A stretch of 64,000 bases of DNA, taken from the NCBI GenBank assembly GCA_965221695.1, contig OZ244905.1, positions 2,752,001 to 2,816,000 of the forward strand, written 5' to 3'. The position numbers and the translations under genes were made by a program. Origin of the DNA: Gammaproteobacteria bacterium. GTDB taxonomy: Bacteria > Pseudomonadota > Gammaproteobacteria > Eutrophobiales > Eutrophobiaceae. Within the stretch, counting starts at the first letter, position 1. Each line of letters starts with the position of its first letter. The notes under the pieces were generated by a model that was given only the letters and a program-made list of their open reading frames with translations, was not told where the DNA came from and made no database searches. Shown here in pieces: positions 35,019 to 49,396 of this stretch.

Positions 35019-35197
35019 GGGTCGATTATACCGTTTAACTCACAGATGTCTGATTGTATTGTAACCGCATGCAGGATAGGTCAGCAGCGCGGTTTCCGCT
35101 ACATACAAGTTTTGCTTCCGCTATGTCTATGTGTTGCCATTGGAATACGTTTATACTGTTCTGCGGATGCTTTCCAAACAGGGACACCGATACATAA

Positions 35198-35226
35198 GGA
35201 ACCTCTGGTCAAGTCCCGGAGGTTAC
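35198..35226. repeat. Degenerate solo MITE terminal hairpin
   Basis: GGAACCTCTGG-TCAAGTC-CCGGAGGTTAC, flanks ATAA/ACAA, in the TBDR leader. Confidence 0.5.
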
Positions 35227-35249
35227 ACAACGATTTGGAGGGTAGACTT

Positions 35250-37553
35250 ATGAAACGCCATTTGAATTCATTGCTGGTGAGCGCAGCATTAGTTGGCATG
35301 GTTCTGCCGATGACCGCTTATCCGCAGATAGAGGAGATCGTCGTCACCGCACAAAAGCGCGAGGAAAACCTGCAGGACACACCCATCGCCATTACCGCGT
35401 TTACCGAGGAAGCCTTGGAAGCGCGCATGATCAGCGACATATCGAAACTCGCGGATTTCACGCCCAATGTGATCTTTGATACCACTGCGCCGATCAGCGG
35501 CCTGTCCAATGGCGCCGCGGTGTTTATCCGGGGTATCGGGCAACTGGATTTTGCGATGACCACGGATCCTGGTGTGGGAACCTATATTGACGGCGTTTAT
35601 TCATCCCGCGCGGTAGGCGGCGTACTGGATGTGGTGGACATTGAGCGAATCGAAATTCTGCGCGGTTCCCAGGGTACCCTGTTCGGCCGCAACACGATAG
35701 GCGGCGCCATCAACATCACTACCAAGCGGCCGGCAGAGACCTTCGGCGGGATGCTGGAAGCCACTTTCGGCGAGTTTGAGAGGACGGATTTCAAGGGTTC
35801 ACTCGATGTGCCGGTTACGGATAAGTTCCGCACCAAGTTCGCCTTTTCCAGCAAGAACAGGAACGGCTTCGTGGACCGAATAGCAGTCGGGGATCGGCTG
35901 GGTGATGAAGACCGGCAGTCGGTGCGCGCATCGTTCCTGTTGCAGCCGGCGGATGCCATCGAGATGTATGCGACCGTAGATTACACCAGTATCGACGAAC
36001 AGAGCGCCGGCAGCGTGATGGTCGGCATCACCGAGTTCACCGGTGACCCGGCGCAAGGTCTGACGCCCAGCAGTACCTGGGCCTACAACCAGGTGTTCGT
36101 GCCGGCCAACCCCGGCGCTGCGCCTTACACTCTCAATGAATTTTTACCGGGCGCTGCCGATCAGACCCTGGCAACCGGGCCCACAGGCACTGATCTAGAA
36201 AGTTTCGGCGCTACCCTGACCTTCACCTGGTCGCTTCCCTGGTTCGAGTTCAAATCGATCTCGTCGTATCGCGACACGGAAGGTGAGTTCTACCGTGACC
36301 CGGATAATTCCTCTGTTGAGATCACGGAGACCTCCAATCCCAATTACAACCACGAGCAGTTCAGCCAGGAACTGCAGTTAACCGGCGCAGGGTTCAACGA
36401 GCGCTTGCAATATGTGCTCGGCGCCTACTATTTCGAGGAAGACGGCGCCGATGATGTGTTCGTGCCTATATACGGGGCCTTGCCGACGCCCGTTGGTCTG
36501 ATAGCGTTACCGCTTTACATCAACAATTACTCAACGGTGGATAACGACAGCAAGGCGGTTTTCGGCCAAGGGACCTTCGCCGTCACCGAACAGATCGCGC
36601 TGACCTTCGGGATGCGCTATACGGAAGATAAAAAAGGATTTGGATACCGCCAATATATCTCACCTGACCCGTTCCCGGGCAACATCGCGGTCGTCGCAAT
36701 TCTTGGCCCGCCCTTCGCGGTCCCGGGGCCGGCAGATGCGCTTGTTATGTGGGATAAGGTATCGGAGAAATTCAATGAGTTGAATTTCCGCGCCGGCATC
36801 GACTACCAGCTCAACGACGATACCCTGTTGTACTTCACCTATGCGGACGGGTACAAAAGCGGCGGCTTCAACTACCGCTACGTGGTCCCCCGCCTGGACC
36901 CGCTGCCGTTCGACCCGGAGACCCTGGAGTCCTACGAGGTGGGGGTGAAATGGCAAGGTCTGGACGACCGCCTGCGCATCAATGCGGCGGGGTTTGTCAG
37001 TGAGTACAGCGATGTGCAGATCCAGTTGTTCGAGACCGGCGGTGGCCCGCTGACCCAGAATGCCGGTGTCGCCGATATCATCGGCGTGGAAGTGGAACTG
37101 ACCGCAGCGCTCCATGAGCGCCTGCTGCTCAACGCCGGCTTCGGCTACATCGACGCAGAGTACGATGAGCTCAACCTGCCCACCACGAATGTGGCGCAGG
37201 CGGTCAACCTGGATACAAAACTGCCCAATACCCCTGAAACCACGGTGAATGTCTCGGCGCAATATTCCCACCCGCTGCCCTGGGGTTCACTGATCGTGCG
37301 TGGCGATTACCGCTATACCGACGACCTGTACAACGATGCACAAAATTCCCCGTTTCTGTACCAGGATGGGTATCATACGGTGAACGCGTCGTTGACCTTC
37401 AGCGCCGGCAACTGGGAATTCAGCGTATTCGGCGTCAACCTGACGGATAAACGTTTTATCACCAGCGGCGACTCCAACTTCGGCCTGGGGTTCCACGAAG
37501 CGAATTACAACCGCCCGCGGGAGTTCGGCGGGCTGCTCAGGTACCGGTTTTAG
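35250..37553 (+). CDS. TonB-dependent receptor
   Basis: GGAGG RBS before MKRH, signal peptide, IEEIVVTAQKRE, GTLFGRNTIGG, C-terminal YRF. Confidence 0.95.
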   Translation: MKRHLNSLLVSAALVGMVLPMTAYPQIEEIVVTAQKREENLQDTPIAITAFTEEALEARMISDISKLADFTPNVIFDTTAPISGLSNGAAVFIRGIGQLDFAMTTDPGVGTYIDGVYSSRAVGGVLDVVDIERIEILRGSQGTLFGRNTIGGAINITTKRPAETFGGMLEATFGEFERTDFKGSLDVPVTDKFRTKFAFSSKNRNGFVDRIAVGDRLGDEDRQSVRASFLLQPADAIEMYATVDYTSIDEQSAGSVMVGITEFTGDPAQGLTPSSTWAYNQVFVPANPGAAPYTLNEFLPGAADQTLATGPTGTDLESFGATLTFTWSLPWFEFKSISSYRDTEGEFYRDPDNSSVEITETSNPNYNHEQFSQELQLTGAGFNERLQYVLGAYYFEEDGADDVFVPIYGALPTPVGLIALPLYINNYSTVDNDSKAVFGQGTFAVTEQIALTFGMRYTEDKKGFGYRQYISPDPFPGNIAVVAILGPPFAVPGPADALVMWDKVSEKFNELNFRAGIDYQLNDDTLLYFTYADGYKSGGFNYRYVVPRLDPLPFDPETLESYEVGVKWQGLDDRLRINAAGFVSEYSDVQIQLFETGGGPLTQNAGVADIIGVEVELTAALHERLLLNAGFGYIDAEYDELNLPTTNVAQAVNLDTKLPNTPETTVNVSAQYSHPLPWGSLIVRGDYRYTDDLYNDAQNSPFLYQDGYHTVNASLTFSAGNWEFSVFGVNLTDKRFITSGDSNFGLGFHEANYNRPREFGGLLRYRF

Positions 37554-37604
37554 GCTAGCCCGCAACACCTGCTGAGAAATACGGGCTAACAGGAGAATTT
37601 GCAG

Positions 37605-38639
37605 ATGTTGGAACAATACAAAGTAGCCGTGGTCCAGGCGGCGCCGGTGTTCCTGGACCTGGAAGGCACGGTTGCCAAGGGGATTGCGTTAATTGAGGAA
37701 GCGGCGCGTAACGGCGCCCGGCTGATCGGGTTCCCGGAGACCTGGATACCGGGTTACCCGTGGTGGATCTGGCTGGATTCCCCGATCGATGGTCTGCGTT
37801 TTGTGCAGCAATACCATGAAAACAGCCTGGGTAAGGACAGCCCGCAGTTGCAGCAGCTCTGCGATGCGGCTCGGGATAATGACATCATGGTAGTAATGGG
37901 CGCCAGTGAGCGGGACGGCGGTTCACGTTACATCTCACAGTTTTTCATCGGCGCAGATGGCGCGTTGCTGGACATCCGGCGCAAGCTGAAACCAACCCAC
38001 GTGGAACGCACCGTGTTCGGCGATGGCCATGGCAATAACTTGCGTGTCTATGAGACGGAACTTGGCCGGGTGGGTGGTCTGTGCTGTTGGGAGCATTTGC
38101 AGCCGTTGAGCAAGTATGCGATGTATGCCCAGAATGAACAGGTACATATCGGCGCCTGGCCGACCTTCAGCCTGTACCGTGACAAGGCCTACAGCCTTGG
38201 ACCGGAGTTGAACATGGCGGCATCTTCGGTGTATGCAGCCGAGGGGTCATGTTATTTTCTTGCGCCGTGCGGGCTCATTTCGCAGGACATGGTTGAGTTG
38301 ATGGCCACTACCCCGACAAAACAGGACCTGCTCCCGCCCGGCGGCGGTCATGCGATGATCTTCGGGCCGGACGGCGCGCCTTTGTGTGACTACCTGGCAG
38401 AAGATGCCGAGGGCCTGTTATACGCAGAAGTTGACTTCGGCGCCATCACGGTAGCGAAATCCTTTGCCGACCCGGCCGGACACTACTCCCGTCCGGATGT
38501 CACACGCCTGTTGTTGAATGTTGCTCCGGTCACGCCAGTCGAATACCTGGATACGCCTGCTGAGGAAGAGGACGATACGGGGACCCTGGACATTGAGACA
38601 CATGCCGGTTCGACTTCAGGGTTGTCTGTCGTGAAATAG
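37605..38639 (+). CDS. Nitrilase (arylacetonitrilase/aliphatic nitrilase branch)
   Basis: FPETWIPGYP, RRKLKPTHVER, CCWEH (Glu-Lys-Cys triad), DPAGHYSRPDV. Confidence 0.92.
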   Translation: MLEQYKVAVVQAAPVFLDLEGTVAKGIALIEEAARNGARLIGFPETWIPGYPWWIWLDSPIDGLRFVQQYHENSLGKDSPQLQQLCDAARDNDIMVVMGASERDGGSRYISQFFIGADGALLDIRRKLKPTHVERTVFGDGHGNNLRVYETELGRVGGLCCWEHLQPLSKYAMYAQNEQVHIGAWPTFSLYRDKAYSLGPELNMAASSVYAAEGSCYFLAPCGLISQDMVELMATTPTKQDLLPPGGGHAMIFGPDGAPLCDYLAEDAEGLLYAEVDFGAITVAKSFADPAGHYSRPDVTRLLLNVAPVTPVEYLDTPAEEEDDTGTLDIETHAGSTSGLSVVK

Positions 38640-38708
38640 ATGGGCCGATTTGAACGCGTGCGGTGAGCAAAGCGGGCTATACTGATAAGTAAATCCCGGT
38701 ATTCTTCA

Positions 38709-39704
38709 ATGTCCGATTTTCTGCTTCCAAAAGGGCATATCACTACGACAGAGGATGTTGCCGAAAAAGACCAGCTTGAATACTGGATAGACATGATCTG
38801 TGATGAATTCGTGCAACTGGACTGCACCATCGAAAATCATCATAAGGACTTCAAGGGAAAAATCCGCGGCGCCCGACTCGGAGACATACGTGTCTCTGAA
38901 GTAAATTCCGATGCGCAACATGTTATCCGGTCGCGCAAACAGATCGCCAAATCCACCGAATGCGAGTTCCTGTTGAGCTTACAAATGGATGAGGTTGGTT
39001 TCATTAATCAGGATGGCCGTATTGCGGAACTGCACCCGGGAGATTTTGCACTGTATGACAGCACCAGGCCATACTTCCTGCATTTCGATCGGCCGTTTCG
39101 CCAGATAGTACTGCAGATTCCCTATCACTCCCTGGCGGAACAGTTCGTCAGGCCGGAGAATATCACTGCCCGCCGGGTATCCGCACAAACTGCCATGGGC
39201 GCGTTGGCATCGCAGTTCATACAGTCCGTCGCTGCGCGCCTGGACATCCTGTCGGCACAGGAACGCGGCGTGATCAACCACCACATCATCGAATTGATAG
39301 CGCTGGCCATGGGGTCGATGTCCTCGTTACCGGAACTGGACGGCCAATCGATTGCCCGAACTGCCCTGCTGGAACGTATCAAGCAGTACATTGAGATCAA
39401 TATCCGAGACCCGCAACTGACGCCGGCACAGGTCGCCTCACACCACCATATCAGCGAGCGTTACCAACGCATGCTGTTTGCATCCAAGGGCGCCACCGTC
39501 TCCAGGTATATCCTGGACAAGCGCCTGGAATTATGCCGGGAATCGCTGGAAAACCATGCCTTCCGTGATTACAGCCTCACCCAGATCGCCTTCAGCTACG
39601 GCTTCAATGACGCAGCACACTTCAGCCGCAGGTTCAGGGAGCGTTATGGCGCGTCTCCCAGGGAATATCGCGAAAGGCTCATACATAAAGCAACCTGTGA
39701 TTAA
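38709..39704 (+). CDS. AraC-family regulator (NitR/FeaR-like)
   Basis: QDGR...L.PGDFALYDSTRPY ligand domain; C-terminal IAFSYGFNDAAHFSRRFR...G.SPREYR. Confidence 0.9.
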   Translation: MSDFLLPKGHITTTEDVAEKDQLEYWIDMICDEFVQLDCTIENHHKDFKGKIRGARLGDIRVSEVNSDAQHVIRSRKQIAKSTECEFLLSLQMDEVGFINQDGRIAELHPGDFALYDSTRPYFLHFDRPFRQIVLQIPYHSLAEQFVRPENITARRVSAQTAMGALASQFIQSVAARLDILSAQERGVINHHIIELIALAMGSMSSLPELDGQSIARTALLERIKQYIEINIRDPQLTPAQVASHHHISERYQRMLFASKGATVSRYILDKRLELCRESLENHAFRDYSLTQIAFSYGFNDAAHFSRRFRERYGASPREYRERLIHKATCD

Positions 39705-39729: not shown

Positions 39730-39759
39730 AAAAAAACCCGCAGCGTTGTCGCTGCGGGT
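39730..39759 (-). terminator. Rho-independent terminator of the sNOR cluster
   Basis: Minus strand reads ACCCGCAGCG-ACAA-CGCTGCGGGT followed by a T run. Confidence 0.75.
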
Positions 39760-39802: not shown

Positions 39803-40378
39803 TCAAGCATTGCCAGACCCTTTCAGTTTTTGTCCGGGCCGGTATCCGGAGGTATTGAAAAACACCTGTCCGAGCCAGATCATTCCAAGTATAAGGCCCA
39901 GTATGATAAGCAGATTTCCGAGTTGCTGTTGTTCGCTTAACAGGTAGTTATTACAAAGCCGATCAGGCGCGACGAGATAGATCCAGCCAAGTCTGAACAG
40001 CATTGCCAGAAATTCGATTTTTACCACCCCCCTGGCTATGAAATGCAGGTTACGCCAGCACAGCCCCAGGGGAATGCCGATCAGTAACGGCACGGAAATG
40101 TATTTCATTAGAGCAACGAACTCGTCATTCACCGACGCATCCAGCCACCTGGGTATCATCCAGAACACGAGAGTAAAACCTGCGAGCAGAACACAGGGGA
40201 TACTGATACTGTTGAGGACGCGGGACATGTGTGGTGTGACTAGCCGGCCTGCCGTGATGCCGGTGAAAATCAGCAGCGGTATTTCAACCAGCACGTGCGT
40301 CAGTAATGAGGCCTCAAGAAATGAACCCATTGGAGTGAGGGCGATGAGCAGCCACAAAACCGAACCGAGCAGGAACAT
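39803..40378 (-). CDS. Membrane protein of the sNOR cluster (orf1-like, putative assembly factor)
   Basis: 5-6 TM segments, FWMIPRWLD, RLCNNYL..EQ; last gene of the oxidase cluster. Confidence 0.7.
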   Translation of the reverse strand: MFLLGSVLWLLIALTPMGSFLEASLLTHVLVEIPLLIFTGITAGRLVTPHMSRVLNSISIPCVLLAGFTLVFWMIPRWLDASVNDEFVALMKYISVPLLIGIPLGLCWRNLHFIARGVVKIEFLAMLFRLGWIYLVAPDRLCNNYLLSEQQQLGNLLIILGLILGMIWLGQVFFNTSGYRPGQKLKGSGNA

Positions 40379-40381
40379 GGT

Positions 40382-40990
40382 TCAGATGAGTGAAGTGATA
40401 TGCCGGATCATTGCGTCTGTGTCATCAACATCGTAAATACCCACAATCTGATGCTTCCTGACCAGGTATATCGCAGTATTGTGTACGTACCCCAGATCAG
40501 GTTCCGGCAGGACAATGACTTCGAGGCTGTCAAGCAGCTCGTCCAATGTCTGCCTGTTCGTGACCCTCAGGGCGGACCATGATCCGGGCTCAGGCGAAAA
40601 CCTGCGCAGGTATGCGGACAGTTGTTCCGGTCCGTCATGGTCATGGTCAAAAGAGACACTTAATAACTGTACTTTTTCAGCATGCCCGGCAGAGGCCAGT
40701 ATTGACTGTAATTGGCTGAACCGGTAGCCCATCGTCATGCATGCGGTCGTGCAACGCGTGAAGATAAAGTCCATGACAAGTACCGGTTTGTCAAAATCGT
40801 GCAGGCTTGCGTGTTTTCCCGTCTCGCGCTGGACTGCAATATCCGGCAGTGACCTAGGTTGGCTCAGTAGTGAGCGCCGGCGCGCGGCTTCGGTAGTCCA
40901 GGTGGTCCAGCCGTCCGTGGCCCAGCCCAGAGTCGCCAGCCCGCCTGCGCTGATGCCGAGCGCCAGGAGTACGCTAACCCACGGCTTCAC
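40382..40990 (-). CDS. senC: SCO1/SenC copper chaperone
   Basis: FIFTRCTTAC (CxxxC), SVSFD...D, conserved His in YVHNTAIYL. Confidence 0.88.
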   Translation of the reverse strand: MKPWVSVLLALGISAGGLATLGWATDGWTTWTTEAARRRSLLSQPRSLPDIAVQRETGKHASLHDFDKPVLVMDFIFTRCTTACMTMGYRFSQLQSILASAGHAEKVQLLSVSFDHDHDGPEQLSAYLRRFSPEPGSWSALRVTNRQTLDELLDSLEVIVLPEPDLGYVHNTAIYLVRKHQIVGIYDVDDTDAMIRHITSLI

Positions 40991-42429
40991 GCTGTACGGG
41001 CATTCCCCATGCCGACCAGGAACCTCAGGGCAAACACCAGCGCAGACAGCGCGATGCCAATTGCCAGTACAGAAGCTGTCTCACTGTAGCTGACCCATTC
41101 CGGCAGGTGAACCGCCCAGCGGCGCGCGACGCTGGCCTGGCCGCTGGCAAGAAAGTTCATGCAGAACGCGGCGCCGGCTAGCAGGTAGACCCAGAATGCA
41201 AGTTTATCAAGCAGTTTGGGGGCGCCGTTCTGGGCAATGTAATACATGAAACCGAACAGCATCGCGACCAGGCCCACGATCAGGTACATGTGGAAATGAC
41301 CAGGGACCCACATGGTATTGTGCATGACCTGGTTGGCTGCAATAGTTCCGTCGATAACGGCCGGTATCACGCCTACCGCCCACCCGAAGATGGATACGAA
41401 TAACAGTCCTGATACCATGTCCCAGCGAAGATTTGACCGGTGCACAAGGGTCAACGCGCCGTACGCGGTCACTACGAGAACCGGCAACCCACTCAGGTAG
41501 GACAGGATCTGTCCCATTAATAACATCCAGGTTGGCATCACGAAATCCATCAGCAGGTGATGTGGGTACACGAACATCACCATGAAAGTCGATGCCGTCC
41601 AGGCTGCAAGAAATACCTTGTTTACTTTCCAGGGACGTCCCGTATATTCTGGCAGGATCTCATAAACTGCGATTACGGCCTGGTAAATGGTCGCATTGAT
41701 AAAGACATGGCCGAAGAAGAAAATAAGATTCTTCGCCAACAGGGCATCGACGCTAAAGGCCGGGTAAAACAGGTTCACGAGGATCATGGTCAATACCACT
41801 GCGCCTGCCAGGATGCCGGCGATATTTATGATCAGCGCCATGGTTGACGCGACCACGCAGGCAGGTGGAAAATCTGTGCTGTTGCCGAATAACTGGGGCC
41901 AGCCGAGACTGCGTGCAAGGTTACCGTATTTCGAGATGATGGCGCGCGCCACATCCAGGTACAACAACAGGAAGCCGACGCCAATCAGGAGCAGGCCAAT
42001 CAGGAACGATGCCGCGCCGCTTACATCCCACAAGCCCATGCCGTGGGACGGCAGCGGAAACAGGAAGGTCCAGGCGCCACCGTATCCGCCCAGGAAGATA
42101 CCTCCCAGGATCAGGACGACGCCGAGCAGGAAAAAGGCCAGGTTGGCCCATAATATTCCGCTGGTCAGGTTCACATGCCGGCGCAGGAAATACCATAGCA
42201 CGGCGCTCGCAGCGAGACCGGAAATGCCCACCATACCGGCGCCATGCGCGGTCATGATTTGGTAAAAAATATGCGGTGGTATGGTCAGCCATTGCGCCTG
42301 CCCCATGCGCATCAGCAATCCCAGCATCATCATCAACACAAACACCAGGGCGCTGATCCCAAGATAGGAAATAATCGCGTACCGAGCAGATTTACTCATT
42401 GGTGTGATTGAAGCTTCATTTGTCATCAC
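40987..42429 (-). CDS. norY: Heme-copper oxidoreductase subunit I, sNOR type (putative NO reductase)
   Basis: Six His ligands (TAHG, FFGH, PHH, GHFH) present, but H+4 is Asn (HVFIN) instead of the cross-linked Tyr. Confidence 0.8.
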   Translation of the reverse strand: MMTNEASITPMSKSARYAIISYLGISALVFVLMMMLGLLMRMGQAQWLTIPPHIFYQIMTAHGAGMVGISGLAASAVLWYFLRRHVNLTSGILWANLAFFLLGVVLILGGIFLGGYGGAWTFLFPLPSHGMGLWDVSGAASFLIGLLLIGVGFLLLYLDVARAIISKYGNLARSLGWPQLFGNSTDFPPACVVASTMALIINIAGILAGAVVLTMILVNLFYPAFSVDALLAKNLIFFFGHVFINATIYQAVIAVYEILPEYTGRPWKVNKVFLAAWTASTFMVMFVYPHHLLMDFVMPTWMLLMGQILSYLSGLPVLVVTAYGALTLVHRSNLRWDMVSGLLFVSIFGWAVGVIPAVIDGTIAANQVMHNTMWVPGHFHMYLIVGLVAMLFGFMYYIAQNGAPKLLDKLAFWVYLLAGAAFCMNFLASGQASVARRWAVHLPEWVSYSETASVLAIGIALSALVFALRFLVGMGNARTA

Positions 42430-42476
42430 AATACCCCCAAACCCGGATTTCTCACCAGGTCGCTAGTTGACATTTT

Positions 42477-43001
42477 TCACTTGACGATGAAAGGAATGAT
42501 CATCGCATGGTGGGACAGACCGCAGTATTCCATACACATCAACCTGTACTGGCCTGGCTCGTTGAACGTGTATTTCAGCTTGTTTTCGTACCCGGGCATC
42601 GCCTGTGTCTGGGCCAGTAAACGCAGTTCACTGTCGTAAATTCCCATACCATGATTGACATCCTCGGTGGTGACGTTGAATATCACGGTAGCGCCGGCCT
42701 CAACCTGGTTTTGACTCAGTTGCCAGAACCATTGTCTTCCGATCGCATCGATTTCTACGGCATCTGCAGTTATCTCACCGCGTGTCGTCGCATATGGCAA
42801 CACCTGGGTGGTAGCAAAGAAGATAACGACCCCGGCGACAAGCAGTGTCCAGAAGAGTTTCGCCCTGAAACTCAATGCGCGTGTCAGTACCGTATCATAA
42901 TCCGGAACGGTTTTTGACGTGTTGACGGCGACATAAATGAAAACGGCCGCGATGATGGCCATAAATGAGAGTGATATAAGCCAGACAGTCTCTTGAATCA
43001 T
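42477..43001 (-). CDS. norS: CuA-containing subunit II, sNOR type
   Basis: DVNHG...AMPG...CMEYCGLSHHAM CuA motif; two N-terminal TM helices. Confidence 0.8.
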   Translation of the reverse strand: MIQETVWLISLSFMAIIAAVFIYVAVNTSKTVPDYDTVLTRALSFRAKLFWTLLVAGVVIFFATTQVLPYATTRGEITADAVEIDAIGRQWFWQLSQNQVEAGATVIFNVTTEDVNHGMGIYDSELRLLAQTQAMPGYENKLKYTFNEPGQYRLMCMEYCGLSHHAMIIPFIVK

Positions 43002-43041
43002 CAGTCTTCCCCCAGAGTGGACTTAACGCCGAACTCTTATT

Positions 43042-44754
43042 TTATTGCCGCCACCAGCCGGCAGCGAACTCGTTGACTTCCCGGGCGCGGAAGCGCGCCA
43101 CACGGTTACTCGGTTCCAGCGCCTCGGTATAGAAGAACTCGGGAAGTTCATCGTCCGCTTCAGTAAAGCCGGCAGCCCGATTGAATTCCCGCTCCAGGCG
43201 CAAGGTCTCCCGACCCAGTTCGCGGAAGAAGGACGGTTCCAGTTCAGTCCCGACCGCGCTGTTGATGGCGTCGGTGATCAGTTCCAGTTGGGTGTTGGTC
43301 ACGGTACGCCCGAACACGCAAAATCCAAGAGAATCCGTTGCCGCGGTGACTACCTGCGCATCGTGGCTGGCGCCGGCTATCTCATCCAAGGACTTGTCGG
43401 CGGTCTCCATCTTGGGGACGTTGCCGGCGGTATGGTCCGCGCCCTGGGCCGTGAGCATCATGGTAATGCCGGTGGCCTCGATCACGCGCGGGTCATAGGC
43501 GCTGATGGCCTGGCGTTTGATGACCGGCACTCGTTCAACCCCATAGTGTTCACCCACGGCCGCGGTGCCGCCGGCCCAGAGACGGCCTTGCTCGGTTCCC
43601 GCGCGTACCTGTTCCAGCACATCCGTGACGAAGTCCACATCGCCAAATTCGCCCAGGCCGGCCTCCATCAGTACCCCGACCATTGCGCCGGCTTCGATGG
43701 TGTCGATGCCGAGATCGTTGGCGACGGCATTCAGCCGGGCCAGGTCATCGGGTTCCTTGATACCGCAATTGGTCCCCAGCAACCCCAGCGTTTCGTACTC
43801 GACCGGCGACACGATCTCATTGCCGTCGGCATCGGCATAGACATTGCTGCAGCGGATCAGGCAACCGGGCATGCAGGCATGATCCTGCTCGCCGCCGCGG
43901 GCGATATTCTGCTCGCGGATGAAGTCGCCGCCCATCTTCAGGGTCTCGATATTGGTGTCGACCAGCCGCCCCGAGGAAAAATTGCGCACCGGCAGGCCGC
44001 CCACATGGTTGGTGTAGTCCGCCATCATCGCGGTGCCAAAGCGCTTGTAGCTGTCGATCATCGGGTCTTTGCCCAGTTTTTCCGCATAGTTACGCACCGC
44101 GCCGATGACTTTTTTGCGCTCATGCAGTTGCGGCATCCGATCCAGGTCGGCAACGACGGCTTTCACCTTCTTGCTGCCCATGACCGCGCCGACACCACCG
44201 CGCGCTGCCAGCCTCGCGGGGCGCCGGTCGGTATCGCTGACCGCGATCCCGGCAAGCAGGCCCTGGTATTCGCCAACGGGACCGCACAGGGCCAGGCTCA
44301 CTTTTTTGCCGTATTTTTCATGCAGCAGGGCGGCCGTCTCAAAATTGCCCATACCCATGAAACCCGTAGCCGCATCGAAATTGACACTACCGTCCTTCCT
44401 CAGGTGGATAATCATCCATTCATCGGCGGCGCCGTGCAGGGTAAATCCCGACAGGTGCAACTGGCCCAGCGCCACGCCCAGGGTGCCGCCGGCGTTGGCT
44501 TCCTTGACGCCGCCCGTGAGCGGACTTTTGCAACCGACGCTGGTGCGGTTGGCGTTGGAGAAGTTGGTGCCGGCGAACGGTCCGGCGGAGAAAATCAGCG
44601 GATTTGCCGGTGACAAGGGGTCCACGCCGGCGATATTCTCTTCCAGCAGGGTCTTGGCGATCAGGTAGCGTCCTACGCGCACCAGCTCCTCTCCTTTCTG
44701 CTCAACGGCACGCACGGTCCGGTTCTTAAGGTCGATATGCAGATAATTACGCAT
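43042..44754 (-). CDS. Aldehyde:ferredoxin oxidoreductase family (tungstopterin) enzyme
   Basis: KSPLTGG, ARGGVGAVMGSKKVKA, CMPGCLIRC, EYET, DLGID, DSLGFC, FNRAAG. Confidence 0.9.
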   Translation of the reverse strand: MRNYLHIDLKNRTVRAVEQKGEELVRVGRYLIAKTLLEENIAGVDPLSPANPLIFSAGPFAGTNFSNANRTSVGCKSPLTGGVKEANAGGTLGVALGQLHLSGFTLHGAADEWMIIHLRKDGSVNFDAATGFMGMGNFETAALLHEKYGKKVSLALCGPVGEYQGLLAGIAVSDTDRRPARLAARGGVGAVMGSKKVKAVVADLDRMPQLHERKKVIGAVRNYAEKLGKDPMIDSYKRFGTAMMADYTNHVGGLPVRNFSSGRLVDTNIETLKMGGDFIREQNIARGGEQDHACMPGCLIRCSNVYADADGNEIVSPVEYETLGLLGTNCGIKEPDDLARLNAVANDLGIDTIEAGAMVGVLMEAGLGEFGDVDFVTDVLEQVRAGTEQGRLWAGGTAAVGEHYGVERVPVIKRQAISAYDPRVIEATGITMMLTAQGADHTAGNVPKMETADKSLDEIAGASHDAQVVTAATDSLGFCVFGRTVTNTQLELITDAINSAVGTELEPSFFRELGRETLRLEREFNRAAGFTEADDELPEFFYTEALEPSNRVARFRAREVNEFAAGWWRQ

Positions 44755-44846
44755 GATTTGATAACCTGGGAAAAAATATTTATCTATTATAGTACTAAGG
44801 AAGCATGAAGTGGGGAGGCAGGTAAGTTGGTAAAACTCATTGACAA

Positions 44847-46361
44847 TTACATCTCGCGCCAGTCACAGGACTGCTCAAACGCGTAAGCAGCTCGGTAGAT
44901 TGCCGGTTCATCATAATGTTTCCCCACCAGCATCATCCCGACCGGCAGCCCGTTGCGCAGGCCGCAGGGAACCGACATGGCCGGGTGGCCGGTGATATCG
45001 AACTGGCAGGTGTTGAGCACGGTATTCAACGCCACATGGATAATCTCATCATCGGCGTCCGCCGCGTCAGCCGTCGGGTTTTTGCGCGCCTGCATCAATG
45101 TCGTCGGCAGCAGTAACAGGTCATGGTTCTGCAACGCGTTGTCGTAAGCATGGACCAACCTCGGCAGATGGCTTTTCGCCTTCGCATAATACTTGCCTGC
45201 GTAGCGTTCCAGGTACTTGCCCAGCAACAATACCAGGTGCAGGTTTACCGGAAACTGCGCCAGTTTGTTCTGCCACCCGGACAAGTATTTTTCCAGCGTC
45301 GGCGAACTGAAGCCATTGGTATTCATCGCCAAGCCGTTGTACCGCAGCGTTTCCCAGAGGCCGTCGGTGATAATTGCGCCCCACAGCGAAACCCCGTCCC
45401 GGTGCATGGGAATGGAAATCTCGGACACCTCGGCGCCGAGGCCGGCGAACCGGTCCGCGGCCGCGCGCACACAATGATCCACAACCGGGTCCGACAACGG
45501 GTGCTCGAAGCCTTCCCGGAGCACGGCAATTTTCATACCTTGCGCGTCCTGGCCCAGCGCATCGGTATAGCGCCGCGTCTGTAATTGGCGTTGGCGGCTG
45601 TCCATGCCGTCATAACCGGCAAGGACTTCCAACATCAAAGCGTTGTCGCTGACATTTGCGGTCATCGGACCGACATGGTCGAGCATGGCTTCCATGCCCA
45701 GGATACCCGTGTAGGGCAACAGGCCGAAGCTCGCCTTCATGCCATAAACCCCGCAAAAGCTGGACGGTATGCGTACCGAGCCGGCCTGGTCGCAGCCCAG
45801 CGCCATGTCGACCGCGCCGCCGGCAACCAGCGCGGCGCTGCCGGAGGAAGAACCGCCGGCCGAATATGCGGGATTGTGTGGGTTGCGGACAACCCCGGTG
45901 CTGGCGGTGACGCTGGCGCCGGAAACACAAAGAAATTCACAGACCGCCTTGCCCGTAATCGTCGCGCCGGCGTCGAGCAGCCGGCTTACCACCGTGGCGT
46001 CAAACTCCGGCATGAAACCTTCCATGATCGAAGCGCCGTTCATCATCGGAACCTGCGCCACGAATATATTGTCCTTGATGGCGACCGTGCGCCCGGCGAG
46101 AGGCCCTTCAGCATTACCTGGCAGGTCAGTCTTTACATACCAGGCGCCAAGAGGGTTTTCCTCCGGCGTCGGAAACCGGTAACTGCGTTCCGGATAGCGG
46201 ACCTGCGGCAGGTTGTCTCCCTGTTCATCCAGAAACCGGTAGCCCTCGGCAAACGGCCCTGAGTTTCTGAGCAGGGTTTCCGTTTGCCGGTCATCCAGCG
46301 ACAACCCCATGGCCGCCGCCAGCGTTTTCAATTCTCCCGTGTCAGGCAGTTTGAATGTCAT
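44847..46361 (-). CDS. Amidase (amidase signature family)
   Basis: IKDN, GGSSSGS, GCDQAGSVRIPSSFCG; start set at MTFKLP. Confidence 0.92.
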   Translation of the reverse strand: MTFKLPDTGELKTLAAAMGLSLDDRQTETLLRNSGPFAEGYRFLDEQGDNLPQVRYPERSYRFPTPEENPLGAWYVKTDLPGNAEGPLAGRTVAIKDNIFVAQVPMMNGASIMEGFMPEFDATVVSRLLDAGATITGKAVCEFLCVSGASVTASTGVVRNPHNPAYSAGGSSSGSAALVAGGAVDMALGCDQAGSVRIPSSFCGVYGMKASFGLLPYTGILGMEAMLDHVGPMTANVSDNALMLEVLAGYDGMDSRQRQLQTRRYTDALGQDAQGMKIAVLREGFEHPLSDPVVDHCVRAAADRFAGLGAEVSEISIPMHRDGVSLWGAIITDGLWETLRYNGLAMNTNGFSSPTLEKYLSGWQNKLAQFPVNLHLVLLLGKYLERYAGKYYAKAKSHLPRLVHAYDNALQNHDLLLLPTTLMQARKNPTADAADADDEIIHVALNTVLNTCQFDITGHPAMSVPCGLRNGLPVGMMLVGKHYDEPAIYRAAYAFEQSCDWREM

Positions 46362-46454
46362 AGTTGGTGAGCTGGTTAACTCAGAGTTGTTCTTACTATA
46401 ACAAACCTGTTGGCGCCGGGGAATCAAATACTGACGCATCTGTTGCTTATTTCC

Positions 46455-46524
46455 CTGGGACCGCGGGCGTCCCGCCTGCGTGCGGGCGCAGTCCGCGAGC
46501 CTGATGCGGGTGAGACGCCCGCGC
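46455..46524. repeat. REP-like inverted doublet
   Basis: CGCGGGCGTCCCGCCTGC and inverted GCGGGTGAGACGCCCGCG (15/18 match); right copy ends at the solo MITE. Confidence 0.55.
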
Positions 46525-46530
46525 AATTAG

Positions 46531-46925: not shown

Positions 46926-46975
46926 GCTTGCAGAAGCTTCTGACTGTGTCGCCCGCGGGGCGACCCATTGTTTCA

Positions 46976-47002
46976 CTGGATTCCTGCTATCGCGGGAATG
47001 GT
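46976..47002 (-). repeat. dRS3/REP-like palindrome
   Basis: Reverse complement ACCATTCCCGCGATAGCAGGAATCCAG matches 52853-52879 at 25/27. Confidence 0.7.
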
Positions 47003-47062
47003 GTGGGGCGCAAGTCAGTTAGTACAATCTATACAGCAAATGACCTGCGGGAGTGTATTGTG

Positions 47063-49396
47063 ATGTTGACCAGTAAAATTCTACGTCGTGTTGTAACTGT
47101 GACCCTCACTTTTTTCGCCGTTTTCTCCATAGCCAATGCGCAGGACAGTTCTACGGCGCTGGAAGAGATCATCGTTACCGCGCAAAAGCGCGCGCAATCG
47201 GTCCAGGATGTGGGGCTGACGGTAGCGGCCTTCAACGACGAACAGTATCGGGAATTGACCCGGGGCACTCTTGACGGTCTTGCGGCGCAAATCTCAAATG
47301 TGCAGGCGTATGCAAACAATACCTACCTGGAGAGCGTGCATATTCGCGGTATCGGGTTGAATGAATTCCAGGGGCAGTTCGATTCGCCGGTGGCGACGCA
47401 CTTCGATGAAGTCTATATCGCCAAACCCTGGATGAAGGCGCGCCGCCATTACGACATCGGGCGGGTCGAGGCGCTGAAAGGACCACAGGGCACCTTGTTC
47501 GGCCGTAACACCACCGGTGGTTCAATCAACTTCTACACCAAGGCGCCGGTGGACCGGTTCGAGGCCGAGTTGGAAGCCGGGATGGACGAACATGAACGCT
47601 ACCGGGTCACCGGCATGGTCAACGCTCCGCTGTCCGACGGGCTCAGCGGGCGTGTCTCCTTCAACACGGAATTCGGCAACGGCGGCCCCCAGAAAAACCT
47701 GTTTTCCGGCGACGAACACGGCCGGCCGGACCTGTTGGATGTACGCGGCCAGCTACTGTGGACCGGAGACAAACTGACCGTGCGCGCGCTGGTCCACGGC
47801 GGCCGGGACAAGAGCGATAAGACCGCCTGGAAAGGCCCGGGAATTTTTAACCTGGGGGCGCCGGGATTGTGTCCGCAACTGTTTACCGGCGAGGTGTCGA
47901 AAAGCCCGTCGACCTGCTCCAAGACTGGCGGATCCGCGACCCTGAATGGTTACCCTGAGGGTGAATTCGAGCCTGAAGGCATACATACCATCAACCAGAA
48001 TAAGCCGCCGACGGTAGATGACAAGTTCTATGGTGGTTACCTGCGCTGGGATTATGAAATAGGCAATGCAACGCTGACTTCTATTACCGCCTATGAATAT
48101 TACGAGCGCATCCATACTGACGACAGCCAGGCCGATATGTTCAACTCGACCAGCACTCACTATTACGACGAGATGAACCAGATCAGCCAGGAACTCAGGC
48201 TGACCGGTTTTCTGAGCAGAAACTGGCGCTATATCCTGGGATTTTTCTATGAAAACGACGACCTGGACCAGGTCGACGGTTCCGACCTGAGCCAGCAACA
48301 GGTGCCGACAATAACCCCGCCGTTTGCGGACCAGTTCTTCTCCGAGTTTGCCTTGGATACGGAATCCATTGCCGTATTTGTCCACAATGAGTTCGATTTT
48401 ACCGACAACCTGACTCTCAACCTGGGATTGCGTTATACGGACGATAATATTGAAGTCAGCGATGCGCTGATGGGCATTGGCCTGTTGCCGCAGTTCGGCA
48501 AGGAGAAGTTTGTTACCCCGTGCTTCATCACCACCTATCCGGCCGGCCCGAACGGTTCCCCGGCCTGCCCGTTCCTGGGGCCCGAAGCGCCGCTTTACAA
48601 CGACAGCCGCACGGACAGGGATTTCTCCTGGCGCGTAGGCATCGAATGGAGCGCGGCTGATGACCTGCTGGTCTATTCCAACTTGACCACCGGTTACCGC
48701 AGCGGCGGCTACAGCCTGCCGTTCGCGGGCGCAGCCACCACGTTTGACCCGGAAGAACTGCTCACGGTGGAATTGGGTTTCAAGTACCAGTTACTGGATG
48801 ACACCTTGCGCATCAATGCGTCGGCCTTCCGTTACGTGTACGACGATGTGCAGGTCAATGTGGACGACCCGGTTTCGCCGCTGGTGCCTATCACGCGTAA
48901 TATCGGCGAGCAGTTGAATACCGGATTTGAGGCTGATATCACCTGGCAGCCGGTGCCCAGTCTGTACCTGAGACAGAGCATCGGTTACCTGGATGCCGAA
49001 TTCAACGACACGCCGCGCACGGTTTCCACCTATACGGGCGTCATCCCCCTGGAAGGCAAGCGCCCGGTGAATTCCCCCGAGTGGACTTACAACGGCGCGG
49101 CCCGCTGGCAGCAACAGGTGGCTGACGGCATGGACTTGATCATCGGTGTGGACTACCGTTGGATAGACGACCGTTTTCTGGAAGCGACCAATGCGGCTTT
49201 CGACAAATCGGATGATTATTGGGTGGCCAACATGCGGGTTGCGCTGGCGACCGATAAATGGGAAATCGCGCTATACGGAACCAATATTTTCGATGAGGAA
49301 TACCTGACCTATATCAACAATATCGGTTTCTTCAAGCTGGATATCTTCGGAGAAAGGCAGACCTTCGGCGCGTCCGTCCGCTACCGGTTCCAGTAA
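47063..49396 (+). CDS. TonB-dependent receptor
   Basis: Signal peptide from MLTSK, LEEIIVTAQKR, LKGPQGTLFGRNTTGG, C-terminal YRFQ. Confidence 0.95.
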   Translation: MLTSKILRRVVTVTLTFFAVFSIANAQDSSTALEEIIVTAQKRAQSVQDVGLTVAAFNDEQYRELTRGTLDGLAAQISNVQAYANNTYLESVHIRGIGLNEFQGQFDSPVATHFDEVYIAKPWMKARRHYDIGRVEALKGPQGTLFGRNTTGGSINFYTKAPVDRFEAELEAGMDEHERYRVTGMVNAPLSDGLSGRVSFNTEFGNGGPQKNLFSGDEHGRPDLLDVRGQLLWTGDKLTVRALVHGGRDKSDKTAWKGPGIFNLGAPGLCPQLFTGEVSKSPSTCSKTGGSATLNGYPEGEFEPEGIHTINQNKPPTVDDKFYGGYLRWDYEIGNATLTSITAYEYYERIHTDDSQADMFNSTSTHYYDEMNQISQELRLTGFLSRNWRYILGFFYENDDLDQVDGSDLSQQQVPTITPPFADQFFSEFALDTESIAVFVHNEFDFTDNLTLNLGLRYTDDNIEVSDALMGIGLLPQFGKEKFVTPCFITTYPAGPNGSPACPFLGPEAPLYNDSRTDRDFSWRVGIEWSAADDLLVYSNLTTGYRSGGYSLPFAGAATTFDPEELLTVELGFKYQLLDDTLRINASAFRYVYDDVQVNVDDPVSPLVPITRNIGEQLNTGFEADITWQPVPSLYLRQSIGYLDAEFNDTPRTVSTYTGVIPLEGKRPVNSPEWTYNGAARWQQQVADGMDLIIGVDYRWIDDRFLEATNAAFDKSDDYWVANMRVALATDKWEIALYGTNIFDEEYLTYINNIGFFKLDIFGERQTFGASVRYRFQ

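Follow-up and report, generated by a model that had tools for sequence, protein, structure and literature searches.

A norS-norY-senC-orf1 cassette of the sNOR family, predicted to reduce nitric oxide and probably transcribed by read-through, in a gammaproteobacterial genome

Four adjacent genes in a 64,000-nucleotide stretch of gammaproteobacterial DNA (C1:2752001-2816000; hereafter the window) look like a cytochrome c oxidase cluster, and the question they raise is whether the encoded enzyme reduces O2 or nitric oxide (NO). An earlier note on this DNA had proposed an sNOR-type NO reductase; sNOR was reportedly described as a family of heme-copper oxidoreductases by Hemp and Gennis in 2008. 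Because the signature residues of the catalytic subunit, its identity to known norY products, a clade with a support of 100 and a conserved gene order all agree, we likewise assign the cluster to the sNOR family. We think it likely that these genes form a norS-norY-senC-orf1 cassette whose enzyme would convert NO to N2O, mainly for NO removal, and which is transcribed by read-through after loss of its operator.

The cassette (minus strand, 39803-43001) comprises genes for subunit II (CuA) and subunit I (heme-copper), followed by those for an SCO/SenC protein and a membrane protein (Table 1). Open reading frames, Pfam matches and a stem-loop bear out the composition and closure described in the earlier note, including the SCO gene, the membrane orf and the terminator. 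All four frames are intact and every ligand is present. The norY stop codon and the senC start overlap by 4 nt, and the terminator, a strong one, lies 44 nt after the last stop codon of the cassette. In 79 of 80 related loci, norS is 40–87% identical to the gene preceding norY. NorS contains the full CuA motif claimed earlier, and each of its six ligands (H117, C156, E158, C160, H164 and M167) is conserved in at least 78 of 80 rows; C80-x3-C84 and H170 of the SCO protein are conserved in 76 of 76 rows. None of the NCBIfam models reached its cut-off for the cassette, the best scores of subunit I being 50.6 (cut-off 700) and 49.1 (cut-off 670.75), and annotation has given a close homologue the name ‘cbb3-type cytochrome c oxidase subunit I’, in line with the expectation that pipelines would label such an enzyme an oxidase.

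Table 1. Coordinates of the cassette and of its flanking features in the window.
Feature	Positions	Strand	Evidence
norS: CuA-binding subunit II, 174 aa, N-terminal membrane anchor and cupredoxin domain	42477..43001	-	Pfam COX2, 32.3 bits
norY: heme-copper subunit I, 480 aa, 12 helices	40987..42429	-	Pfam COX1, 160.5 bits
senC: SCO1/SenC-type periplasmic copper chaperone, 202 aa	40382..40990	-	Pfam SCO1-SenC, 48.7 bits
orf1: conserved polytopic membrane protein, 191 aa	39803..40378	-	Position after senC in relatives
Intrinsic terminator, cassette end	39736..39759	-	10-pair stem with 8 G-C pairs, then T run
AOR-norS junction: 40 nt between AOR stop codon and norS start	43002..43041	-	Sequence; ribosome-binding site only
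Aldehyde:ferredoxin oxidoreductase-family gene (AOR), directly upstream of norS	43042..44754	-	Pfam AFOR_N, 176 bits; AFOR_C, 198 bits

We aligned NorY with 80 relatives, giving 81 rows with the locus under study. All six His ligands reported earlier for subunit I were recovered (H62, H241, H290, H291, H378 and H380). Five of them, together with N245, Y249, Y256 and T321, were identical in 81 of 81 rows; H62 was His in 79 rows and fell in a gap in the other two. As judged from this alignment, the conservation of these NorY features is not due to chance. In a phmmer comparison with the PDB, G-H-V-F-I-N of NorY aligned to G-H-P-I-V-Y of Thermus ba3, placing Asn245 on Tyr237. Thus, the position of the cross-linked Tyr is indeed occupied by Asn, here and in every aligned relative.

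Dataset S1 of Murali 2024 (PMC11214002) gives the sNOR residues as N-243, Y-247, Y-254, E-255 and T-319 (numbered as in B. azotoformans); the position of ba3 S309 is not occupied by Ser. NorY has N245, Y249, Y256, E257 and T321, with Leu318 at the ba3 Ser position, and it therefore carries all of the published sNOR signature residues. The spacing from the Asn (+4, +11, +12 and +76) equals that in Dataset S1; our mapping runs through spacing and through Bacillaceae and ammonia-oxidiser (AOB) relatives rather than through the B. azotoformans sequence itself. The Glu of the E257 column is conserved in 76 of 81 rows. A further check suggested earlier concerned a Tyr supplied from another helix, and we found no conserved candidate. 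The only Tyr near the HH pair is Y288, two residues before it, and this position is Tyr in just 56 of the 81 rows, Phe in 24 and Val in one. Among the models that Murali 2024 describes (PMC11214002), there is no migrated Tyr.

A quick IQ-TREE phylogeny of 61 rows, from which named eNOR, gNOR, nNOR, bNOR and ba3 references were left out, placed NorY in a 29-row clade (SH-aLRT 100) with four Nitrosospira/Nitrosovibrio sequences, three from Bacillota, Aromatoleum and Thauera. Its identity to the norY products of Nitrosospira/Nitrosovibrio is 58–59%. Branches with supports of 96–98 separated the sNOR clade from all six representatives that bear the Tyr and from the genome’s own A-family and cbb3 subunits. 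NorY thus grouped with ammonia-oxidiser sNOR, as the earlier note would have it, and not with B- or C-family O2 reductases. In a motif survey of 40 full-length representatives among the 150 listed (two rows gave no active-site motif), GHxxxN, twice with Ser, extended down to ∼165 bits where the motif was found, and all six rows with GHP(V/I)VY scored at or below 131 bits. The AlphaFold2 model of NorY (pLDDT 90) aligned to bo3/aa3 with a TM score of 0.85 and to ba3 with 0.76, a fold search result that does not distinguish between the A and B families.

Gene order is conserved as well. Subunit II, subunit I, SCO and the fourth gene, orf1, follow one another on the same strand in 71 of 80 relatives, and of the nine exceptions six come from short contigs or from the end of a contig. 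The order matches the norSY-senC-orf1 (sNOR) cluster published for N. briensis (PMC4964001), as the earlier note had stated. That note had also stressed the presence of sNOR in a heterotroph; sNOR has already been catalogued in heterotrophs (Dataset S4 leaf list and Datasets S6/S8, PMC11214002).

From these residues we infer the following electron and proton paths. A periplasmic donor would reduce the CuA centre of NorS, from which electrons would pass to a low-spin heme (H62, H380) and on to a binuclear site made of a high-spin heme on H378 and a non-heme metal with H241, H290 and H291 as ligands. Without a His-Tyr cofactor, such a site should be unable to supply the fourth electron for O2, and it would most likely join two NO to form N2O (2 NO + 2 e- + 2 H+). 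A channel containing Y249, Y256, E257 and T321 may supply protons from the cytoplasm, and the reaction would then be electrogenic. SenC is predicted to load the copper of CuA, and orf1 probably acts as an accessory subunit or in assembly. That sNOR reduces NO is itself a prediction. A literature search from 2024 on, by title and abstract, found no biochemical study of a purified sNOR, in agreement with the earlier remark that the family is barely characterised biochemically, and an August 2026 paper describes eNOR as the only confirmed one among the new clades (PMC13592168).

We searched the genome for genes that make or consume NO and N2O. The earlier statement that no nir, norBC or nos genes are present is true of the window and incomplete for the genome, which holds nirS (at C1:646314) and a qNOR gene (at C1:1765059) whose 761-aa product matches solved qNORs with E 5e-220. 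Among the genes for which the earlier note had suggested a search, nirS was thus found and nirK and nosZ were not; narG and napA were also not found, and nirS is an orphan. Neither NirF nor NirN nor NirJ turned up. The genome contains aa3 and cbb3 oxidases besides sNOR. Because a bona fide qNOR is present, a second NO reductase is not needed, and we counted this against the NO-reductase reading. Six of the 23 genomes of the genus encode sNOR, two of them with nirS and none with nirK; since four of the six lack both, sNOR is not tied to an internal source of NO. With qNOR and an orphan nirS in the genome, and neither N2O reductase nor respiratory nitrate reductase, the enzyme would most likely serve in the removal of NO made by the cell or arriving from outside, rather than in full denitrification.

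The surroundings of the cassette in relatives point in a similar direction. The NsrR box is gATGyAT-N5-ATrCATc (Rodionov 2005, PMC1274295), and 16 of 77 loci have a box with at most one mismatch in the 200 nt upstream of norS (0.3% in shuffles). Among 80 loci, the flanking ORF closest to the cassette encodes an Rrf2 regulator in 17, a formate/nitrite channel in 16 and an HPP protein in four. FNR/DNR-like boxes occur in eight of 78 loci, versus 1.3% in shuffles, and a sigma-54 activator lies upstream of the cassette in ten of 75. Across the 80 relatives, then, gene neighbourhoods and candidate operators indicate a consistent link, in many of them, between the cassette and an NsrR-type repressor gene, NsrR boxes or nitrite channel genes. 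Such control and such channels suggest that the cassette in these relatives responds to NO or nitrite signals and not to O2 signals.

This bears on whether the enzyme might instead serve terminal O2 reduction at high affinity, as a B-type heme-copper oxidase for low oxygen whose NO reduction is at most a side reaction. From a 2.7- to 10.8-fold rise of sNOR transcripts in O2-limited N. europaea, Sedlacek 2020 proposed that the enzyme might be an oxidase of high affinity (PMC6967387); the modelled oxidase-type fold of subunit I (TM 0.85 to bo3/aa3), the oxidase-like CuA and SCO components and the four sNOR genomes of the genus with neither nirS nor nirK would all accommodate this view. We nevertheless consider it unlikely, because the cross-link position is Asn in all 81 rows, the one Tyr near the HH pair is poorly conserved and no migrated Tyr appears in the published models cited above, because the genome already encodes aa3 and cbb3 oxidases, and because relatives keep the cassette under NsrR-type control beside nitrite channels.

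A second alternative accepts that the enzyme is not an oxidase and assigns it some other small species of nitrogen or oxygen (for example nitroxyl, peroxynitrite, N2O or the dismutation of NO) in place of NO reduction to N2O. The chemistry of any sNOR is a prediction, NO dismutation or N2O reduction has been proposed for other Tyr-less offshoots of the superfamily (PMC11214002), and the channel Glu of sNOR occupies a place unused in other heme-copper oxidoreductases (PMC11214002). However, bNOR, whose active site matches that of sNOR, is a proven electrogenic NO reductase (PMC11214002), Nitrococcus produced N2O with sNOR as its sole NO reductase (PMC5665590), and the gene context gives no sign of a different substrate. 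We therefore hold this alternative to be quite improbable, and NO reduction to N2O remains our preferred reading.

The control elements seen in relatives are missing at the locus under study. When its upstream region was aligned with those of four congener or near loci, shared sequence was limited to ∼25 nt before the norS ATG; a TTGACA box and a palindrome that G133, G134, G135 and L009 share further upstream are both absent, as is the Rrf2 gene that follows orf1 in G133, G135 and G136. The 40-nt junction contained no promoter-like or terminator-like site, and the window yielded no FNR/DNR box at one mismatch or fewer. Seventeen NsrR-like boxes with one mismatch occur in the genome, none of them at sNOR, qNOR or nirS. 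With three cassette-linked Rrf2 proteins as tblastn queries, the only genome match was an IscR-like gene (28–33% identity), and the genome’s second Rrf2 (81 bits) sits among dehydrogenase genes. The alignments show that in this lineage a deletion took out the promoter/operator and the Rrf2 gene, which has left norS 40 bp after the AOR gene. The cassette is now probably transcribed by read-through from the amidase-AOR genes. For G000 versus G128, which both share the junction, dN/dS is 0.08–0.15 for the four genes, values that show them to be still under purifying selection. That the cassette is a silent, unexpressed remnant heading to decay, as the loss of the TTGACA box, palindrome and Rrf2 gene and the want of a promoter-like site before norS might suggest, is very improbable given intact frames with complete ligands in all four genes, low dN/dS since a G000/G128 split that itself came after the deletion, a good ribosome-binding site kept before norS and no terminator between AOR and norS to prevent read-through.

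We also weighed the roles of orf1 and of the genes upstream. Among 24 orf1 sequences nine columns are invariant, and six of the 24 matched DUF1404 below the cut-off; in the Pfam search, the orf1 described here has no match but a sub-threshold one to DUF1404. Neighbours of orf1 in the ESM Atlas carry DUF1404/Caa3_CtaG, and hhalign of orf1 against six Caa3_CtaG proteins gave a probability of 2.3% (E 0.021). A profile search of the PDB with orf1 found nothing below E 0.9, and its AlphaFold2 model (pLDDT 83.6) matched no solved chain at Z of at least 8, the matches being helical hairpins. It is possible that orf1 is a CtaG/DUF1404-like assembly factor, and we offer this as a lead. AOR lies upstream of the cassette in congeners G128, G133 and G135, with boxC/boxB-like genes between the AOR region and the cassette in the latter two. 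AOR and the amidase were rejected as functional partners of sNOR, as they adjoin the cassette in none of 80 wider relatives.

The absence of an NO-forming nitrite reductase from four of the six sNOR genomes, the stripped regulator and operator, the fusion of the cassette behind amidase-AOR and the strong purifying selection lead us to a further, tentative suggestion, possible although we doubt it: in this genus sNOR may be a stand-alone scavenger of outside NO, perhaps energy-conserving, rather than a denitrification enzyme, with expression that is constitutive or follows carbon/nitrogen catabolism and no longer responds to NO. If so, aerobic marine heterotrophs with sNOR would consume NO and release N2O in oxic water, a sink and a source that have gone unrecognised. 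General pipelines annotate sNOR, like several other enzymes predicted to form N2O, as a cytochrome oxidase, so that without special HMMs too few such genomes are counted as sources of N2O. For biochemistry (NO versus O2, metal content and proton uptake), a copy from a heterotroph that can be cultivated or cloned, small and complete with its four genes, would be a practical start.

How does the cassette compare with named systems? The cNOR/qNOR enzymes have an FeB site with a Glu ligand and NorC or a fused cytochrome-c-like domain, with no CuA; NorY has a CuA-type partner, no NO reductase was among the 27 PDB sequences it matched at E ≤0.001, and the true qNOR is the separate gene described above, so membership was rejected. 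C-family (cbb3) O2 reductases take their cross-link Tyr from helix VII and have cytochrome c subunits in place of CuA. Membership in this family was rejected on the variable Y288, the CuA-type partner and the genome’s own cbb3, which is located elsewhere and falls outside the sNOR clade. Thermus thermophilus ba3 is the best PDB sequence match to NorY (E 2.2e-06) and shares a CuA subunit II and K-channel Tyr/Thr equivalents, with 18% identity by structural alignment. In contrast to NorY, which has Asn245 and Leu318, it has Tyr237, cross-linked to His233, and Ser309; as NorY reads GHVFIN and lacks the cross-link Tyr of GHPxVY, it was not accepted as a B-family (ba3-type) O2 reductase.

The bNOR (qCuANOR) of Bacillus azotoformans shares with sNOR the CuA subunit, the three His and Asn at the Tyr site, although Murali 2024 describes the two families as not closely related (PMC11214002). 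Dataset S1 of that study gives Tyr at N+3, Ser-317, T-320 and Glu-5 in subunit II for bNOR (PMC11214002); in NorY, Ile stands at N+3 and Tyr at N+4, the Ser site holds Leu318, and Glu257 agrees with sNOR, and on these subunit I residues NorY was not placed in bNOR.

The nearest tree branches are Gamma- and Zetaproteobacteria sNOR loci (L010-L015, L018, L021 and L063-L067), in which subunit I is 56–76% identical to NorY. They have an NsrR box before norS and an Rrf2 and/or nitrite channel gene, whereas the cassette studied here has none of these. The sNOR clusters of ammonia and nitrite oxidisers (Nitrosomonas europaea, Nitrosospira briensis/multiformis and Nitrococcus mobilis) contain the same four genes in the same order, and in AOB sNOR the N, Y, Y, E and T residues stand at a spacing identical to that in NorY, within the same clade. 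Unlike those hosts, the present one lacks RuBisCO and SoxB; an AMO search matched nothing in its genome, and the control for that search likewise matched in no genome. A nitrite channel gene directly follows orf1 in five of five AOB loci, whereas this genome has no FNT or HPP homologue, and the cassette, unlike the AOB type, is missing its own promoter region. The locus is a typical member of the already named sNOR family, not a novel kind of system, and its contribution lies in context: the link in relatives to NsrR-type regulators and nitrite channels, and a natural, regulator-less version of the cassette kept by selection.

The interval that the earlier note had read as an sNOR-type nitric oxide reductase cluster resembling a cytochrome c oxidase holds four closely packed ORFs, norS, norY, senC and orf1, with the senC start overlapping the norY stop. 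Every part of the underlying observation was borne out: the four ORFs, six His ligands, an Asn at the Tyr site, CuA, the SCO protein, the membrane ORF and the terminator. Because one close homologue carries the source label 'cbb3-type cytochrome c oxidase subunit I', and no NCBIfam model came near its cut-off with the cassette proteins, the remark that pipelines would label the enzyme an oxidase is also fair. Nine columns are invariant among 24 sequences of the conserved orf1 (also called orf4) product.

Coordinates of the sNOR cassette and of other features discussed (window positions unless a contig or locus is named; C1 is the contig of the window's genome, L108 and L109 are loci on it, and L103–L105 are congener loci)
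Feature	Position	Strand	Size and match
sNOR cassette	39803-43001	minus	four ORFs
norS, subunit II	42477-43001	minus	174 aa; Pfam COX2, 32.3 bits
norY, subunit I	40987-42429	minus	480 aa; Pfam COX1, 160.5 bits
senC, SCO/SenC protein	40382-40990	minus	202 aa; Pfam SCO1-SenC, 48.7 bits
orf1, membrane protein	39803-40378	minus	191 aa; Pfam DUF1404, sub-threshold match only
Strong terminator	39759-39736	minus	10-pair stem, 8 G-C pairs, T run
AOR gene with amidase	43042-46526	minus	AOR 570 aa
Nitrilase and AraC regulator	37599-39704	plus	Nit6803-type; FeaR-like
Long ORF	34911-37553
Long ORF	46928-49396
nirS	C1:645433-647511 (L108:11433-13511)		692 aa
Tandem paralogues after qNOR	C1:1762600-1764703 (L109:6600-8703)	as qNOR	~347 aa each; 4Fe-4S dicluster domain in each
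Congener gene pair before norS	L103:4215-7375; L105:4243-7472; L104:10636-13846		enoyl-CoA hydratase family, 570 aa; PaaA/PaaC-like, 481-491 aa

The His ligands of subunit I are residues 62, 241, 290, 291, 378 and 380. In a phmmer search of the PDB, its G-H-V-F-I-N segment aligned with G-H-P-I-V-Y of Thermus ba3, and Asn245 therefore occupies the site of the cross-linked Tyr237. Subunit II carries the CuA ligands H117, C156, E158, C160, H164 and M167, and the SCO protein has C80-x3-C84 and H170. An AlphaFold2 model of subunit I (pLDDT 90) has the 12-helix oxidase fold, with TM scores of 0.85 to bo3/aa3 and 0.76 to ba3, a fold that does not separate the families. It is also unlikely that subunit I has a relocated Tyr as in cbb3. 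At Y288, adjoining the HH pair, the 81 aligned rows (the window protein and its best 80 relatives) show Tyr 56 times, Phe 24 times and Val once, and the invariant Y56 and Y382, judging by HCO structures, presumably lie beside heme ligands and not beside the CuB histidines.

Murali et al. 2024 (PMC11214002) define sNOR by its lack of the Tyr, its link to CuA and its relation to the B family; their Dataset S1 gives its residues, in B. azotoformans numbering, as N-243, Y-247, Y-254, E-255 and T-319, without Ser at the ba3 S309 site. In the window protein, N245, Y249, Y256, E257 and T321 occur at identical spacing from the Asn (+4, +11, +12 and +76), and Leu318 takes the Ser position; the mapping rests on this spacing and on its recurrence in Bacillaceae and ammonia-oxidiser relatives. 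Across the 81 rows the Asn, both Tyr, the Thr and five of the six His are identical throughout; H62 is present in 79 and falls in a gap in 2, and the Glu is retained in 76.

A whole-library HMMER search with subunit I returned only 531 cluster representatives with E of 0.001 or less, and 40 of the 150 matches listed were at least 440 aa long. Among these 40, our script found no active-site motif in two; down to ~165 bits the motifs found read GHxxxN (two with Ser), and the six GHP(V/I)VY representatives all scored 131 bits or less. Of 600 candidate stretches in a scan of one genome per species, 594 were confirmed, and the best 80 were used. The nearest of these is a Gammaproteobacteria MAG (92% identity in subunit I), and they include Nitrosovibrio sp. 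Nv6 (58%), Nitrosospira multiformis (59%) and N. briensis (58%), as well as Aromatoleum, Thauera, Thiobacillus, Mariprofundaceae, Brevibacillus and Cytobacillus. The cluster bears the name norSY-senC-orf1, sNOR, in the genome paper of N. briensis (PMC4964001). On one strand, the order subunit II, subunit I, SCO, orf4 was kept in 71 of the 80. Of the nine exceptions, six are located on short contigs or where a contig ends, one lacks SCO, one lacks orf4 and one lacks both.

We then placed subunit I in a quick IQ-TREE phylogeny of 61 rows. Besides the window protein and the A-family, cbb3 and qNOR subunits of its genome, these were 24 named loci selected by hand from the best 80 and, likewise selected from the 40 full-length representatives, 25 of the Asn type, 2 of the Ser type and 6 of the Tyr type. 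The window protein fell in a 29-row clade (SH-aLRT 100) with all four ammonia-oxidiser rows and all three Bacillota rows, and branches of 96–98 support separated the Tyr-bearing rows and the genome's A and cbb3 subunits. The closest PDB match was ba3 for one Tyr-type representative and A-family oxidases for another. The phylogeny proposed by the earlier note did not give the outcome that the note had named as refuting, a grouping with B- or C-family O2 reductases.

Regulatory context in the relatives was surveyed with the NsrR motif gATGyAT-N5-ATrCATc (Rodionov 2005, PMC1274295). Within 200 nt upstream of norS, exact boxes occurred at 7 of 77 loci (0% in mononucleotide shuffles), and at 16 of 77 with one mismatch allowed (shuffles 0.3%); an Rrf2 regulator gene was present at 10 of these 16. 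On both flanks of the cassette, the first ORF of 100 aa or more was recorded at 80 loci; it encoded an Rrf2 regulator at 17 (7 upstream, 10 downstream), a formate/nitrite channel at 16, including all five ammonia-oxidiser loci with a downstream ORF, and an HPP protein at 4. FNR/DNR-like boxes were found at 8 of 78 loci (shuffles 1.3%). Betaproteobacteria and Thiohalobacter carry a divergent sigma-54 activator with PAS domains upstream at 10 of 75 loci (L029, L032, L035, L037–L039, L041, L047, L051 and L059), where TGGCAC-N5-type sigma-54 promoter sequences were seen by eye before norS; these loci have a control logic other than the NsrR type. This context lends independent comparative support to an NO- or nitrite-linked function.

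NO reduction is the best-supported predicted function of the cassette, since the enzyme lacks a His-Tyr cofactor, its active site is that of bNOR, a proven NO reductase (PMC11214002), Nitrococcus, whose only NOR is sNOR, produces N2O (PMC5665590), and relatives show the NsrR and nitrite context. Within the literature found, NO reduction has been demonstrated for no purified sNOR. We judge it probable that the enzyme both belongs to sNOR and would reduce NO. A high-affinity oxidase, as Sedlacek 2020 (PMC6967387) argue for sNOR, is improbable, and some other chemistry is less probable still.

The cassette's surroundings in the window differ from those in its congeners. Three congeners (G133, G134 and G135) and a near MAG, L009, have in common a conserved stretch ahead of norS, with a TTGACA box and a palindrome that resembles an NsrR box at two mismatches. 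One further congener, G128, and the window match it for only ~25 nt before the norS ATG; beyond this comes the AOR stop codon, 40 nt ahead of norS. The amidase and AOR genes of G133 and G135 have the same orientation but lie 3.4–4.4 kb away, the interval holding BoxC-like and BoxB-like genes. The congener gene pair just before norS (Table) is absent from the window, and is tentatively called BoxC/BoxB-like from gene sizes and families. In G133, G135 and G136 the gene after orf1 encodes an Rrf2 regulator; in the window orf1 is followed instead by the terminator and the convergent AraC gene. Because congeners keep the upstream region and the Rrf2 gene, the window's genome and G128 appear to have lost the cassette's promoter/operator and regulator gene, and from the state common to four other genomes we infer a deletion in this lineage rather than an insertion in the others. 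No terminator- or promoter-like site was found between AOR and norS in the window, so read-through from AOR would be the likeliest source of cassette transcripts. That the cassette is a silent remnant is very improbable, as its four genes have been under purifying selection since the two genomes split (dN/dS 0.15, 0.08, 0.14 and 0.08).

Aldehyde:ferredoxin oxidoreductase (AOR) family members are normally tungsten or molybdenum enzymes of anaerobes. The AOR, amidase, nitrilase and AraC genes here look like a unit for nitrile, amide and aldehyde catabolism in an aerobic organism; at none of the best 80 loci did AOR, amidase or nitrilase genes adjoin the cassette, and two had a weak AraC-family match.

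The window's genome (one 3.54-Mb contig, 96.85% completeness) encodes four HCOs: A-family, cbb3, sNOR and a 761-aa qNOR (E 5e-220 to solved qNORs), the last followed directly by two tandem paralogues. The genome search for nirK, nirS and nosZ called for by the earlier note left two of these absent, with neither nirK nor nosZ of either clade found above cut-off, but nirS is present outside the window, besides the qNOR. Its product matches P. aeruginosa NirS (cd1 nitrite reductase; E 1.9e-263) and has an extra N-terminal cytochrome c domain; a Crp/Fnr-type regulator gene adjoins. Maturation of NirS is in question, since the genome yielded no NirF/NirN paralogue (a second PF02239 match reached only 19.6 bits), no NirJ above cut-off (best 82 bits against 515) and no heme d1 gene beside nirS. 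Also not found above cut-off were narG, napA, RuBisCO and SoxB; an AMO search gave no match, with an uninformative control. The heterotrophic host of the earlier note is plausible, resting on absences. The two long ORFs flanking the region look like TonB-dependent receptors from their translations, and a third, adjoining nirS, is one by Pfam; all are consistent with a substrate-scavenging marine heterotroph.

Among 61 genomes of relatives, sNOR occurred in six, all within the window's genus (6 of 23; 0 of 14 in other genera of the family, 0 of 24 in other families of the class). In that genus nirS was present in two genomes (the window's and G128), nirK in one, which lacks sNOR, and qNOR in 12, including five of the six with sNOR (one a partial match). 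Here sNOR is an accessory cassette of patchy occurrence and is not bound to an NO source within the cell. Published work already covers the family, the Asn hallmark, the gene order and the occurrence in heterotrophs: Datasets S4, S6 and S8 of PMC11214002 list Roseobacter sp., Thauera aromatica and Pseudohongiellaceae MAGs among others, and marine surveys, PMC13592168 among them, now annotate snor routinely.
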